Made by a program: the position numbers and the translations under genes | Shown: piece after piece, positions 388-3,990 of the stretch | How positions within the stretch are numbered: position 1 is the stretch's first letter | Layout of the letters: every line of letters starts with the position of its first letter | Origin: Alphaproteobacteria bacterium | GTDB lineage: Bacteria > Pseudomonadota > Alphaproteobacteria > CALKHQ01 | Reading direction: 5' to 3' | Assembly: GCA_965227515.1 (NCBI GenBank) | Contig: CBDDFZ010000001.1 | Coordinates: forward strand, 3,017,600-3,081,599 | DNA length: 64,000 nucleotides | The notes under the pieces: generated by a model | The model's input: only the letters and a program-made list of their open reading frames with translations | Database searches by the model: none | Told to the model about the DNA's origin: nothing

Positions 388-3300
388 CTACTCATCATCC
401 GCGAGCTCGTGCAGCAACCTGGCGCTGGCCGACATGTTGATCATTATATAGAGGTCGATCACGGTCCATCGGTCGATGTTGAAGTGATAGTGCGCGATGA
501 CATCCCGCCGAATGGCGTCTTTCTGAACATCGGTCAGGCTGGCCCATTTTGGTCGTGACAGGAAATCGTCAAACAGGTCTAGGATTTCGTTTGTCGGGAT
601 ATCTCGCACCCGAATGCGGAAATAGTGGGCGCCTGCAATGATATCTGCGTCCTCGAGTAGTTCATCGATCCGTTCCTGTCGTGCGGTTCGGCTGCCGTCA
701 ACCTTCGTCTCAATGGCGTTGAATACTTGCCGCTCGGCAAGTTCATCACTGAGCATCAGGAGTTCGTAAGCGCCACCGGCGTCGCTGGAAAGGCCGTCGG
801 GTATGCGGGTTATGCCGGTGGTCTCATCGAAGACGCGTTGCTGGCGGACGATTGTGTTGGGCGGCAATTTTCCATCCAGTCGTGCCAAATCCTCAACCGT
901 GATGACATCGATACCCATGTCTTCGAACAACTTGAACAGGTGGTTCTCGCCAGCGGCACCCTTGATGTAGTTGTAGAGTCCGCCAATTCTATTTTGCATC
1001 TCCGGCGTGAACGTGTGCCAAGCCTGTCTGAAGTAGCGTTCGGGCGGGACTTCGCCGAATGGTTCCGTGCCGTGATTGTTCATCCAGTTGATATAAGTCT
1101 TCGCTCGGAATTGTCTGAAGCGTTCTGACCGACTGCCGACGCGAAATACCAGATGCTTTACCGCACGCGGGATGACGACTAGGCCAGTCACCGTTCCTGC
1201 CGCATCCAGCACCGCAAGGAGGCCGTTGCCCGCCGCGGCGGCCCAATCGCCCCGTTCAACTGCATCGGATATCGCTTCTATGTCCTCCGCCAACGCTTCG
1301 GCGGCGCGGGCGTTGCCGATGATCGGCAGCATGTCGAGGACCAGTTCGGTGACGAACTCGGTCGGGAATTCCATGTCCGGGTAGAGCGCCGGCAGCATCA
1401 GCCTGGAGGCTTGGTCCCAATCCAGTTCGCCGGCGTCGATGGCGGCCTGGATTTCCTCCGCCGCCGCGTACACGTCCTCGAGGGCGTCGTAGTTGCCGGC
1501 GCGGGCGAAGGATTCGGTCAGTTCGGCGGCCGCCTGCCACGCGTCGATCTCGCCGGTTTTCCATGCGGCGAAGGTGTCCAAGCGCTCACCGCCGTGGACA
1601 TCGAGCATGATGTCTTCGAGCGTTTCTGTTGGGGCAGAAATGATGGCCGTGCCGTTGCCATCCACGAACGCGGGATACTCGCCTTCAGCCGTCGGTTCAG
1701 CGATGGTGAAGCCAGTCGCGTCTGCGAAGCGGTCGCGCAACTCGTCGGCGCTCATTTGGCCGTGTTCGAGCTGCCGCGCGAACATCGCATGCGCGAACAT
1801 TGGTGACAGCACGACCTGCGCGGCCCCGAGGCCGCGATCGCGCGCCTGTTGCCGATGTTCGACCGCGTCCTCCGGTCGGTTGGCGGCGTTGGCCTTGTTC
1901 AGCAAACCGGAGTGCGTGTCGATGACGCCTTGGACGAAGACATGCATGGGACGCAGCGGGTTATCGTCGTCGTCGAGTTCTTCGACGCGTGCAGCCAGCC
2001 GAGTTCTTGCCTCGGTCCACTGCTCTTGGTTTTCTGCAAACGTGAGCGCAAGGATATCGAGGGCCAGGCCGTGAACGAAGGCGGCTTCGTCTGGTCTGAC
2101 GATGGCGCTGCCGGGCGCGAGGGTCAGGACGCCGCCGTCAATGCCTGCCAGCGCGGCTCCGTTGGCGATGTCCCAGACGACGGTCTCGCCGTTGGCGCTG
2201 TTGGTGACGACGGCGAAGCGGCCTGACGGATCGATCAGGTCGCCTGCGTAGTGCGCACCGTTCTCGTCGGTGATCGGAGTATCGGCGTCTTCGTTCCAGA
2301 GTACGAATGTGCCTGCATCGTCGGCAATGCGCGTGCCCAGGTGATCCGATGGCGCAACGGCCAAGGCGTCCAGGTCGACGGTGTTTGCAATTGGATTGCC
2401 GGCCGTTTCGCCCCCACCATCGCCATCGAACAGGGCGTCGATGTCGCCACCGGTGTCGGCGAGTTGCATGCCGTCGATACGGCTGGCGAGGGACTCGGTG
2501 CCGTCTTCAGAATCGGAATCCGCGTTCGGACCGGAGGCCGCGCTCGGCCCCCAGAGCTGGGAGGCGAGGGCGGGGTTTTCGAGCGCTTCGACGAAGCGGT
2601 TGACGAGGGTGCGGCCCTGGTCGGTGACCTCCTCGATGGCGCGGGCGTTGCCCCAGAAGCGCGCCGGCATCATGTCGCTGGCAATGCGGGGAATGAGGTC
2701 GTTGATGAGATCGCGGAAGGCGTGCAGCGGGTGCTCCGGGTCTTGCGCCGCCGTGTGCAAAGACTGGGCGGCGTGCACGGCACCGGGGCTGCCGTGTAAT
2801 GGCGCGTTGGCGATGGCGTCGACCTCGACCGCGGCACCAATGAGGGAGGCGATGCGCGCCGGGTTCAGCTCCGGGATCTTCAGCAGCGCGGGGTCGATGG
2901 CGACGGCGTCGCCCTCCAGCGTCGGCCAATAGTCGGCGGCGTCGACATCCCACAGGATGACCTCGCCGGTCGCGGTGTCGCGGGCGAGGCCGAAGGGCGG
3001 CGGGTTGACCCCAGTGCCGTGCTCCAGGCCGCGCGGGGTGGGCGCAGTCGACCGGTTGGCGGGGGCGGCAACGACGATGTAATGGCCGCCGTCGGGCGAA
3101 GCGACCGGCTTGTTGGCGTCCTCGTCCCAGGCCAGCATGGGGTTGGAGCGGGCGATACCGGCACCGATGGGTCGAAGGCCCGGGGTAGTGCGGGCATCGT
3201 AGTGCGGCAGCAGTTGCCACTGCGCGGCGGATTGCGCCCAGCGCGCGGCATCGCTGGGCGGGATCGTCACGTCGGGGTCGAACAGCACGCTGGCGCCGGC

Positions 3301-3558
3301 GACCCGTCCATTGCCGTCGACCAGACGCTGGGCGGCGGGCCTGTTGGGTGTCGTAGGCCGGTCTGACCCCTCGTCCGGTGCTGGAGGTTCAGCCCGCTCC
3401 TGCGCTTCCGGCGTGTCAGGAGATTGGGACGAAGGCTTGGGCGGTTCGGCGGCGTCAAGCGTCTCGGTCGCCGGCGGCGCGGAAGCTGCGACACTGGCGC
3501 GCGGCGGCCGGGGCGTAGCGGGTGTTGGAGGCTGCTCAGGCGCATCCGCAGGGGGCAC
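388..3558 (-). CDS. large hypothetical protein: Pro/Ala-rich N-terminus, beta-propeller-like W-D repeat region, helical middle, compositionally distinct C-terminal domain
   Basis: 1056-aa ORF with a GTG start at 3558. Repeated motifs are GE(T/V)(V/I)LWD..., VVWDIANG and HY(A/I)..D. The last ~300 aa (388-1300) are encoded at clearly lower GC (~53-55%) than the rest (~70%). The frame stays open upstream right up to the IS boundary at 3591, which suggests the 5' end is truncated by the IS. Confidence 0.6.
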   Translation of the reverse strand: MPPADAPEQPPTPATPRPPRASVAASAPPATETLDAAEPPKPSSQSPDTPEAQERAEPPAPDEGSDRPTTPNRPAAQRLVDGNGRVAGASVLFDPDVTIPPSDAARWAQSAAQWQLLPHYDARTTPGLRPIGAGIARSNPMLAWDEDANKPVASPDGGHYIVVAAPANRSTAPTPRGLEHGTGVNPPPFGLARDTATGEVILWDVDAADYWPTLEGDAVAIDPALLKIPELNPARIASLIGAAVEVDAIANAPLHGSPGAVHAAQSLHTAAQDPEHPLHAFRDLINDLIPRIASDMMPARFWGNARAIEEVTDQGRTLVNRFVEALENPALASQLWGPSAASGPNADSDSEDGTESLASRIDGMQLADTGGDIDALFDGDGGGETAGNPIANTVDLDALAVAPSDHLGTRIADDAGTFVLWNEDADTPITDENGAHYAGDLIDPSGRFAVVTNSANGETVVWDIANGAALAGIDGGVLTLAPGSAIVRPDEAAFVHGLALDILALTFAENQEQWTEARTRLAARVEELDDDDNPLRPMHVFVQGVIDTHSGLLNKANAANRPEDAVEHRQQARDRGLGAAQVVLSPMFAHAMFARQLEHGQMSADELRDRFADATGFTIAEPTAEGEYPAFVDGNGTAIISAPTETLEDIMLDVHGGERLDTFAAWKTGEIDAWQAAAELTESFARAGNYDALEDVYAAAEEIQAAIDAGELDWDQASRLMLPALYPDMEFPTEFVTELVLDMLPIIGNARAAEALAEDIEAISDAVERGDWAAAAGNGLLAVLDAAGTVTGLVVIPRAVKHLVFRVGSRSERFRQFRAKTYINWMNNHGTEPFGEVPPERYFRQAWHTFTPEMQNRIGGLYNYIKGAAGENHLFKLFEDMGIDVITVEDLARLDGKLPPNTIVRQQRVFDETTGITRIPDGLSSDAGGAYELLMLSDELAERQVFNAIETKVDGSRTARQERIDELLEDADIIAGAHYFRIRVRDIPTNEILDLFDDFLSRPKWASLTDVQKDAIRRDVIAHYHFNIDRWTVIDLYIMINMSASARLLHELADDE

Positions 3559-3603
3559 CGGCGCATAGGTGATTGCGGTTGACGCTCTAGGGCCTGTTGA
3601 GAT

Positions 3604-3990
3604 TCATCGCGAGTTTATGACAGCTGCTGCGAGATGGATGATGGCGTTGAAGCTTGTGTCGGTTTTGTCTGCACGCATGGCGATTCGCTTGAACTCTTTG
3701 AGTTTGCAGAAGAAGTTTTCGATCAGATGACGCCATTTGTACATCTCGGCGTCGATTTGCAGCGGGCTGGCGCGGCGCGGATGCTGGGATATGACGATCT
3801 TGGCACCGCGCTCGTTGAGGTCAGCAACGATGGCGCTGGTGTCGAACGCTTTGTCCGCGATCATCGCCTTGAAGGAGAGTCCGTCGATGAGCGGCGGCAC
3901 GCCAACCGTATCGTAGCGATGGCCGGGCAGGAGCACGAAACGCACCAGATTGCCAAGCGCATCACACAGCGCGAGGATCTTCGTCGTCAT
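3604..3990 (-). CDS. IS5-family transposase OrfB (DDE catalytic part)
   Basis: KILALCDALGNLVRFVLLPGHRYD...IADKAFD...YKWRHLIENFF is characteristic of the DDE_Tnp_1 C-terminal region. Confidence 0.8.
   Translation of the reverse strand: MTTKILALCDALGNLVRFVLLPGHRYDTVGVPPLIDGLSFKAMIADKAFDTSAIVADLNERGAKIVISQHPRRASPLQIDAEMYKWRHLIENFFCKLKEFKRIAMRADKTDTSFNAIIHLAAAVINSR

Follow-up and report, generated by a model that had tools for sequence, protein, structure and literature searches.

A likely IS-split gene for a modular protein with a low-GC, nuclease-like tail, and the undescribed family to which it belongs

Pre-toxin junctions and delivery in phage heads have both been described for polymorphic toxins (PMC3482391), and PBECR domains are known from effectors that phages package in the virion and inject (PMC5512222). 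In PT-TG (PF14449), a conserved loop of ~15 residues with Gly, Asp and Arg, modelled at low confidence, lies ahead of toxin domains (PMC13483458). These are the described systems that come closest to a gene at one end of a 64,000-nucleotide stretch of contig CBDDFZ010000001.1 from an Alphaproteobacteria bacterium (the whole stretch is called the window here, and its coordinates are used throughout). The gene is likely one continuous reading frame of ~1219 codons on the minus strand (388-4870), split near codon 153 by a recent insertion of an IS5-family insertion sequence (IS). It belongs to a rare, undescribed and unnamed family of modular proteins. The explanation we favor, with moderate confidence, is that these proteins join variable bodies, through a helical hairpin that serves as a fixed junction, to a low-GC effector tail, which in the window is a predicted PD-(D/E)xK nuclease. 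The features of the gene and of the element inside it are listed here from the 5' end of the gene.

4411..4870, minus strand: 5' segment of the proposed split gene, with ATG at 4870 and ~153 codons, ending at the target duplication TAG (4411-4413)
3591..4410, minus strand: IS5-family insertion sequence, 820 bp
3987-4355, minus strand: transposase open reading frame (ORF) of the IS, with a Pfam match to DUF4096
3604-3990, minus strand: transposase ORF of the IS, with a Pfam match to DDE_Tnp_1, overlapping the DUF4096 ORF
388..3558, minus strand: 3' segment of the proposed split gene, readable as an ORF of 1056 amino acids (aa) from GTG 3558
2944..3138, minus strand: internal repeat of the middle region, first copy, MLAWDEDANKPV..GGHY...GEVILWDV, from the alignment with the relative P0002
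2167..2307, minus strand: internal repeat, second copy, FVLWNEDADTPI..GAHY...GETVVWDI
1168..1338, minus strand: conserved helical hairpin (junction), LDMLPIIGNARAAEA...RGDWAAAAGNGLLAVLDAAGTVTGLVVIP
391..1167, minus strand: low-GC tail cassette, comprising a basic linker, a nuclease-like core and C-terminal helices
451..1083, minus strand: predicted PD-(D/E)xK-type nuclease core, from conserved motifs and an AlphaFold2 (AF2) model

The 1056-aa ORF (388..3558) starts with GTG at 3558, and its stop-to-stop frame is open up to 3603, so that the first upstream in-frame stop (3604-3606) falls inside the IS. A preliminary description of this DNA had noted this open frame, and recomputation bears it out. 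It had also placed an IS5 element against the 5' end of the gene, which is now confirmed by the DDE_Tnp_1 match, the inverted repeats, a short target duplication and annotated IS5 homologues. The inverted repeats, GGCCTGTTGAGATTC, are perfect over 15 bp (3591-3605 and 4395-4409), where chance predicts none. A TAG/TA duplication flanks the element at 3588-3590 and 4411-4413; the flanks read CTC-TAG / IS / TAG-ACG, and the restored target is CTAG. Full-length homologues labelled 'IS5 family transposase' match at 80%–86% identity on alphaproteobacterial plasmids (hosts of the nearest are Agrobacterium, Mesorhizobium, Phyllobacterium, Microvirga and Sinorhizobium), and they set the ends of the element at 3590/3591 and 4410. 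These plasmid hosts and a GC content of 67% point to an alphaproteobacterial source for the window. We take its two-frame DUF4096 + DDE_Tnp_1 organization to place it in the IS427/IS1031-like groups of the IS5 family.

Excision of the IS together with one copy of the duplication (823 bp, 3589-4411) fuses the minus-strand ORF at 4400-4870 in frame with the 1056-aa ORF, giving a restored ORF of 1219 codons from ATG 4870. Over 4413-4870 the leader frame is the sole stop-free frame among the six, with a GC content at third codon positions (GC3) of 0.79. The GC of the leader segment is coding-like (~0.69), compared with 0.57–0.59 in the intergenic region at 4871-5052; the leader ORF reaches this AT-richer region, beyond which lies a divergent acyl-CoA dehydrogenase gene. 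Low-complexity leaders also stand ahead of the first conserved block ('LFDPD...') in relatives: P0002 has one of 169 aa, P0044 one of 82 aa, and the phage member at locus L009 one of ~180 aa. The ~153-codon leader encoded at 4411..4870 is probably a Ser/Thr/Arg-rich, disordered segment. The insertion had been thought to have removed the native N terminus. Instead, the N terminus likely lies whole at 4411-4870; since this segment survives beyond the IS and rejoins the gene in frame, the N terminus would have been displaced, not deleted. The IS would cut the remainder of the gene off from its promoter and its first ~153 codons, and this copy is therefore probably silent; at most, a product truncated at the N terminus would be made. 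Scans for promoters and terminators gave nothing above chance. The public annotation of the 3' segment is a 966-aa product (P0001) with its start at 3288.

An exhaustive HMMER search of 1.84 billion representatives (cut-off E <= 1e-3) found 42 relatives, nearly all of which are single-sequence clusters from metagenomes; named sources say 'hypothetical protein' only. P0002 (1090 aa) aligns over its full length at 35% identity, C terminus included. Only P0002, P0004/P0044 and the fragments P0005 and P0024 have the middle region as well, and most of the remaining matches align with query residues ~600–915 alone. When the hits are cut at one alignment column, the tails are of near-constant length (~320–390 aa) and the length of the N-terminal part is anything from 0 to 830 aa, so that one common tail of ~340 aa is found attached to unrelated N-terminal regions. 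The internal duplication of the middle region is weak (BLASTP of the two halves, E = 1e-5 over 65 aa) and is found in the window-type subfamily only.

The window protein has no match in Pfam, NCBIfam, PADLOC or PHROGs, and neither single-sequence nor profile search matched any PDB sequence. In PHROGs the family is absent except for its peptidoglycan-binding part. Because the family is invisible to these four resources, annotation labels all members hypothetical. Translated searches of 72,556 plasmids and 50,697 GenBank phage records gave no relative; two scans of 185,579 species-representative genomes, differing in their motif sets, gave no confirmed relative with the motif sets tried, and neither did a metagenome motif scan. 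When the restored protein, the C terminus and the tail profile were used in word-indexed protein searches, only the query itself or two proteins came back; these negatives carry little weight and are no proof of absence for the family, since the search with the C-terminal 303 aa missed its own database entry.

The most conserved part of the family is the hairpin, for which the tail alignment gives the consensus LDxLPxIGNxRSAxxAxxD...GDWxxAAxxGLxAvLDxAGAxPGxG. P31 is invariant and G34 and G74 are nearly so (window-tail numbering). In the AF2 model the LPxxG loop lies between two helices, with a predicted local distance difference test score (pLDDT) < 50. The second helix is hydrophobic, the median best 19-residue hydropathy being 1.54 vs 0.64 in the nuclease core. 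This helix (in the window at 1168-1240, GLLAVLDAAGTVTGLVVIP) is both hydrophobic and Gly/Ala-rich throughout the family, and its transmembrane score is borderline. Judged from these sequence properties, it might insert into membranes.

What follows the hairpin can differ behind a common upstream region. P0043 resembles P0010 in an N-terminal region (31% identity over 181 aa) and, at 40% identity over 65 aa, in the hairpin, but their tails differ; the post-hairpin domain of P0043 is PBECR1 (E = 1.3e-5, 26.1 bits, slightly under the Pfam cutoff of 27.6 bits). Their genes occupy the same syntenic position in a podophage module, upstream of a T7-type tail-fibre gene. Two podophage-like modules, L005:1832-8554 and L010:2243-7506, have the same order, namely a large hairpin protein, a gene of ~200–230 aa and a T7-type tail fibre. 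The large proteins of these two loci end in different nuclease domains, the next genes are unrelated, and the tail fibres are homologous. Locus L003 (10001-22702) holds three tandem large paralogues of 1140, 1034 and 875 aa. Their ~550 N-terminal residues are alike (90% and 64%–66% identity) and their C-terminal halves differ, with the family tail on the first alone. Such variation of the tail is seen in relatives (P0010/P0043 and L003), not within the window's own subfamily. The likeness to polymorphic toxins, originally offered as an analogy, gains substance from the occurrence of the same ~340-aa tail on unrelated N-terminal regions, from the tail exchange in P0043 and from the constant heads and variable C-terminal halves in L003. 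The same preliminary description had seen no Rhs, PAAR or LXG motif, and the domain searches likewise give none.

Past the hairpin, the tail of the window copy retains the candidate catalytic residues E871 (GAAGENH), D921 (RIPDG), E950 + K952 (IETK) and Q961 (1056-aa numbering). Among the 21–23 sequences aligned, D207, E236, K238 and Q247 are invariant and G153 and E157 nearly so, E157 being present in at least 90% (window-tail numbering). A conserved LR...IP motif, encoded at 595-621, follows the catalytic residues. AF2 run with the family alignment on the 211-residue core gave a pLDDT of 83 and a predicted template modelling score (pTM) of 0.80. The elements are a long helix carrying the E (H27-55), small strands carrying the D (59-99), a strand with ExK (E121-128), a helix with the Q (H134-145) and a strand (E149-157). 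This is the alpha-beta-beta-beta-alpha-beta topology of the PD-(D/E)xK superfamily, and the full-tail model keeps the same order. PD-(D/E)xK nucleases dominate the top ranks of the Foldseek lists for the PDB and for viral proteins, where the best matches are an R2 retrotransposon protein (E = 5e-3) and a phage VRR-NUC protein (E = 1.2e-2), respectively. From three concordant, individually soft lines of evidence we assign the tail to the PD-(D/E)xK (restriction-endonuclease-like) fold with moderate confidence, and we infer that it acts as a nuclease.

The tail also stands apart in composition. GC was scanned in 300-bp windows near the gene and in 900-bp windows over the whole 64 kb, together with a plot by codon position, and it is not uniform across the gene: in 300-bp windows it is 51%–57% over ~200-1200, 63%–67% over 1200-2600 and 69%–73% over 2600-3500. 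The last 255 codons, which make up the post-hairpin tail (391-1152), have a GC of 0.542 and a GC3 of 0.66, compared with 0.679 and 0.80 in the rest of the gene. By codon position, the last ~270 codons have a GC3 of 0.61–0.71, down from ~0.8–0.9, with lower GC1 and GC2 as well. GC in 900-bp windows averages 0.67 +/- 0.03 and is lowest at 201-1100 (0.534, ~4.5 standard deviations under the mean); windows with GC <= 0.55 make up 0.5% of the total and are all located at the tail region. The break falls at ~nt 1150-1170, immediately past the conserved hairpin. GC falls at this same point of the protein in 11/11 family loci (nine loci examined initially, then L009 and L010). For six of these, the values of the N-terminal part and the tail are as follows.

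Window: GC 0.68 / 0.54; GC3 0.80 / 0.66
L002: GC 0.66 / 0.47; GC3 0.72 / 0.43
L007: GC 0.73 / 0.49; GC3 0.90 / 0.55
L008: GC 0.63 / 0.44; GC3 0.71 / 0.37
L010 (PBECR1 tail): GC 0.72 / 0.58; GC3 0.84 / 0.59
L009 (phage): GC 0.62 / 0.48; GC3 0.62 / 0.42

The gene downstream is often AT-rich too, with a GC at least 4 points under the locus average in 6/8 loci having such a gene. In the window, the ORF at 3-347, convergent to the gene, has a GC of 0.568. The low GC of this ORF and of the C-terminal end of the gene, judged by eye in the preliminary description, is therefore borne out by computation. That description had set the foreign module at the last ~300 codons (388-1300) and had read it as horizontally acquired or recombined. 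A separable module does exist, with a composition break that is sharper than proposed and a homologous unit that is larger (~340 aa, including the GC-rich hairpin); a recent acquisition in this genome is not indicated. The window protein is 35.7% identical to its closest relative, P0002, in the head, 27.0% in the tail and 61% in the hairpin. Since head and tail are both deeply diverged and the break is present in all 11 loci, the GC break is an old family trait. The same composition pattern is familiar from CdiA-CT and Rhs-CT cassettes. Candidate reasons for the persistence of a low GC3 in the tail are a shared pool of low-GC cassettes, selection for weak expression of a toxic part, and silencing.

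Apart from the edge of the IS, the only other stretch of the window with GC < 0.60 is at 20600-22050, which encodes two ABC-transporter permeases and a solute-binding protein. A relation of this stretch (20.6–22 kb) to the tail was considered and rejected, its low GC being the ordinary composition of membrane-protein genes. On the minus strand at 62212-64000 lie long ORFs, of 336 aa and at least 188 aa, whose GC3 of 0.61–0.68 is under that of neighboring genes and which match nothing in Pfam; by their composition they look like shadow ORFs of an unrecognized plus-strand gene.

The gene next to the tail is a candidate partner, as an immunity gene would be.

3..347, plus strand: convergent ORF, open to the window edge and of low GC, ending 40 bp from the stop of the large gene

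Being open to the window edge, this ORF is probably partial; it occupies the candidate partner (immunity-like) position. The next downstream gene is convergent in 8/9 non-viral loci. In L003, L004 and L007 these convergent partners belong to a single family (E as low as 6e-11); those of the remaining loci except L008, ORF 3-347 among them, could be placed in no family. L007 (5034-7642) has three tandem c308-type partner paralogues (41%–71% identity) convergent to P0011, and these resemble the immunity-gene arrays of toxin loci. In L003 every one of the three paralogues is followed by a separate convergent gene, whose product is 308 aa long in one case and Sel1-like in the other two (337 and 336 aa, sharing 29% identity). 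The idea of a partner (immunity) gene is thereby supported for part of the family. A common partner family that takes in the window ORF, suggested by the endings 'FGIDV', 'FGWQDV' and 'FGIELD', found no support in BLASTP, hmmsearch or hhalign, and the Sel1-like partners of L003 are not similar to the 336-aa ORF at the far end of the window.

Contexts differ across the family. On the right-hand side of the window gene are leucine-catabolism genes and putA, with no phage genes visible there, and L001, L004, L007 and L008 are chromosomal, again with no phage genes visible. L009, a viral contig from IMG/VR, encodes an internal virion protein, a T7-type tail fibre, the large terminase (TerL), an endolysin and a holin. 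Its complete family member (812 aa) is 66.5% identical to P0008, which adjoins a major-head-protein fragment. L006 has a phage context too, and the L003 array adjoins a CI-like repressor (HTH_3 + Peptidase_S24) and a DUF6456 gene.

As we picture it, the protein would run from a disordered leader, through a middle region with an internal duplication and the two-helix hairpin, to a C-terminal PD-(D/E)xK domain of ~250 aa. The bodies ahead of the hairpin, which are very diverse and in some members are podophage proteins in the internal-virion position, would target the protein for delivery, through virion packaging and ejection in phage members and by another route in chromosomal ones. The hairpin would demarcate the tail and perhaps aid its translocation. 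The tail, usually this nuclease and once a PBECR1 domain resembling a ribonuclease, would cleave nucleic acid in the recipient, and a neighboring partner protein would protect the producer. We also considered a bolder version, which we regard as unlikely. Here hairpin and tail would form a hitherto unrecognized, exchangeable 'warhead cassette' found in alphaproteobacterial podophages and in their hosts, with ejection-type virion proteins or their chromosomal descendants as chassis. The hairpin would insert in the inner membrane of the recipient and pass the nuclease to the cytoplasm, the convergent partners would confer immunity, and the low GC would come from a shared mobile pool or from selection for weak expression.

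Several findings weigh against a modular, toxin-like protein split by the IS. P0001, P0002 and P0004 all have the same tail, so that polymorphism is shown in more distant relatives only, and this window-type subfamily was never seen in a phage context. The Pfam scan of the 42 members found no known trafficking domain, and PG_binding_1 alone, in 6/42. As for the tail, Foldseek gave no match at E <= 1e-3, and neither sequence nor structure links it with statistical significance to a characterized nuclease in Pfam, NCBIfam, PADLOC, PHROGs, PDB profile or Foldseek searches. The partner genes run convergently, which classical immunity genes do not; the convergent neighbor in L008 is an ordinary EAL gene, and ORF 3-347 has no significant similarity to the c308-type partner family by BLASTP, hmmsearch or hhalign. 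At the other end of the protein, the first 153 residues have no detected homologue, and the chance of 153 stop-free codons at such a GC is ~0.04 by our own estimate.

The two findings on the leader would also suit an IS that landed upstream of a complete gene, with the true start at GTG 3558 or at the annotated 3288 and the ORF at 4400-4870 an unrelated small gene or a chance frame. Long open frames are common at 67% GC, and the publicly annotated product is one of 966 aa. Yet the fusion of the frames is exact once the IS and the duplication are removed, all five other frames contain stops, the 460 bp of leader have a coding-like composition that the true intergenic region does not share, the frame of the 1056-aa ORF is open as far as the IS end, and relatives carry leaders of 82 to ~180 aa. 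We find this alternative very doubtful. Nor do we think that the GC drop can be put down simply to the amino-acid composition and codon choice of the domain, in a gene that has always been one vertically inherited unit and whose break is no signal of exchange. GC1 and GC2 do drop together with GC3, every family member shows the drop regardless of host GC, and the divergence from P0002 in head and tail reveals no recent swap in this lineage. However, GC3, which is not dictated by amino acids, drops too (0.80 to 0.66 here, and as much as 0.90 to 0.55 in L007). The identical break occurs past the hairpin with an unrelated PBECR1 tail, the downstream genes tend to share the low GC, and recombination between head and tail is directly visible in P0010 vs P0043 and in the L003 paralogues. 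An explanation by composition alone is quite improbable on this evidence.

A phage ancestry is harder to set aside. The gene could be the decaying remnant of an ejection or internal virion protein, its tail an infection-stage 'polyvalent protein' effector acting on host DNA or defenses, with no role in interbacterial toxicity and immunity, and the chromosomal copies prophage debris. Relatives lie inside T7-like structural modules; P0008, on a chromosomal-looking contig, closely matches the L009 phage protein beside its fragment of a major head protein; a CI-like repressor lies beside L003; PG_binding_1 occurs in some members; PBECR domains have been reported from phage proteins that are injected (PMC5512222); and the window copy is disrupted by an IS. 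Against this, the window gene, L001, L004, L007 and L008 are found amid housekeeping genes. Toxin-immunity loci typically have partner arrays like that of L007 and paralogues like those of L003, which are constant in head, variable in tail and individually paired with a partner. Neither the GenBank phage records nor PHROGs gave a match. We consider a phage remnant rather unlikely and continue to prefer an IS-split gene for a modular protein with hairpin junction and effector tail.

If this preferred explanation is true, it adds a new junction module, a new family of nuclease tails and possibly a new chassis (proteins in the podophage internal-virion position), in a setting of high-GC alphaproteobacteria-like genomes and phages from which the usual trafficking domains are all absent. 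The bolder version, if true, would mean a new delivery route and a new pre-toxin or translocation module for polymorphic toxins. These are members that Pfam, NCBIfam, PADLOC and PHROGs miss. A GC break that has outlasted deep co-divergence of head and tail would also make this family a good one in which to ask why toxin cassettes remain AT-rich. The gene model of this genome is to be corrected to a 1219-codon gene with an IS inside, instead of a protein of 966 or 1056 aa.

How does this locus compare with known systems? The IS is an ordinary element with no notable difference from the IS5 family, and it shares with IS427/IS1031-like elements a size of ~820 bp, 15-bp repeats, a two-ORF transposase and a TA(G) duplication at CTAG. 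The tail resembles PD-(D/E)xK toxin and related domains (Tox-REase, VRR-NUC, Cas4, cap-snatching, R2 RLE) in the order E, D, ExK, Q on a helix-strands-helix-strand core. Unlike them, it matched no Pfam Tox-REase or REase model, its TM-scores are 0.2–0.35 with E-values that are not significant, and it has an extra conserved C-terminal helical part with the LR...IP motif. The hairpin is like PT-TG (PF14449; PMC13483458) in being a short helical module before toxin domains, on many N-terminal bodies, with a conserved stretch of ~15 residues with Gly, Asp and Arg in a low-confidence loop. It differs in its pattern, LDxLPxIGNxRS followed by GDW and a hydrophobic AGxxPG helix. The PT-TG model of Pfam matched 1/23 tails, under threshold (E = 0.026), with no hit to the window tail, and we have not filed the hairpin as PT-TG.

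With MuF toxins and polyvalent proteins (PMC3482391, PMC5512222) the family shares members in podophage virion modules beside the tail fibre, at the position of an internal (ejected) protein, and one member ends in PBECR1, a domain known from phage proteins that are packaged in the virion and injected (PMC5512222). It differs in that no MuF, portal or MPTase domain was found by Pfam in any member, a single effector domain is recognizable, and the window gene has no phage context inside the window. Compared with polymorphic toxins (CdiA-CT, Rhs-CT, MafB, LXG; Zhang et al. 2012, PMC3482391), the family is without a two-partner secretion (TPS), PAAR, Rhs, VgrG, LXG, WXG or MuF trafficking domain, its junction is not VENN, PxxxxDPxGL or a recognizable PT domain, and its partner genes are convergent, not co-directional. 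What it has in common with them is a variable C-terminal effector past a conserved junction, with a composition break at that point, paralogues with constant heads and swapped tails, small candidate partner genes nearby (at times in tandem) and a tail of nuclease type. While it fits no named trafficking class and no Pfam pre-toxin or toxin family, the window protein resembles a polymorphic toxin or phage-delivered effector.

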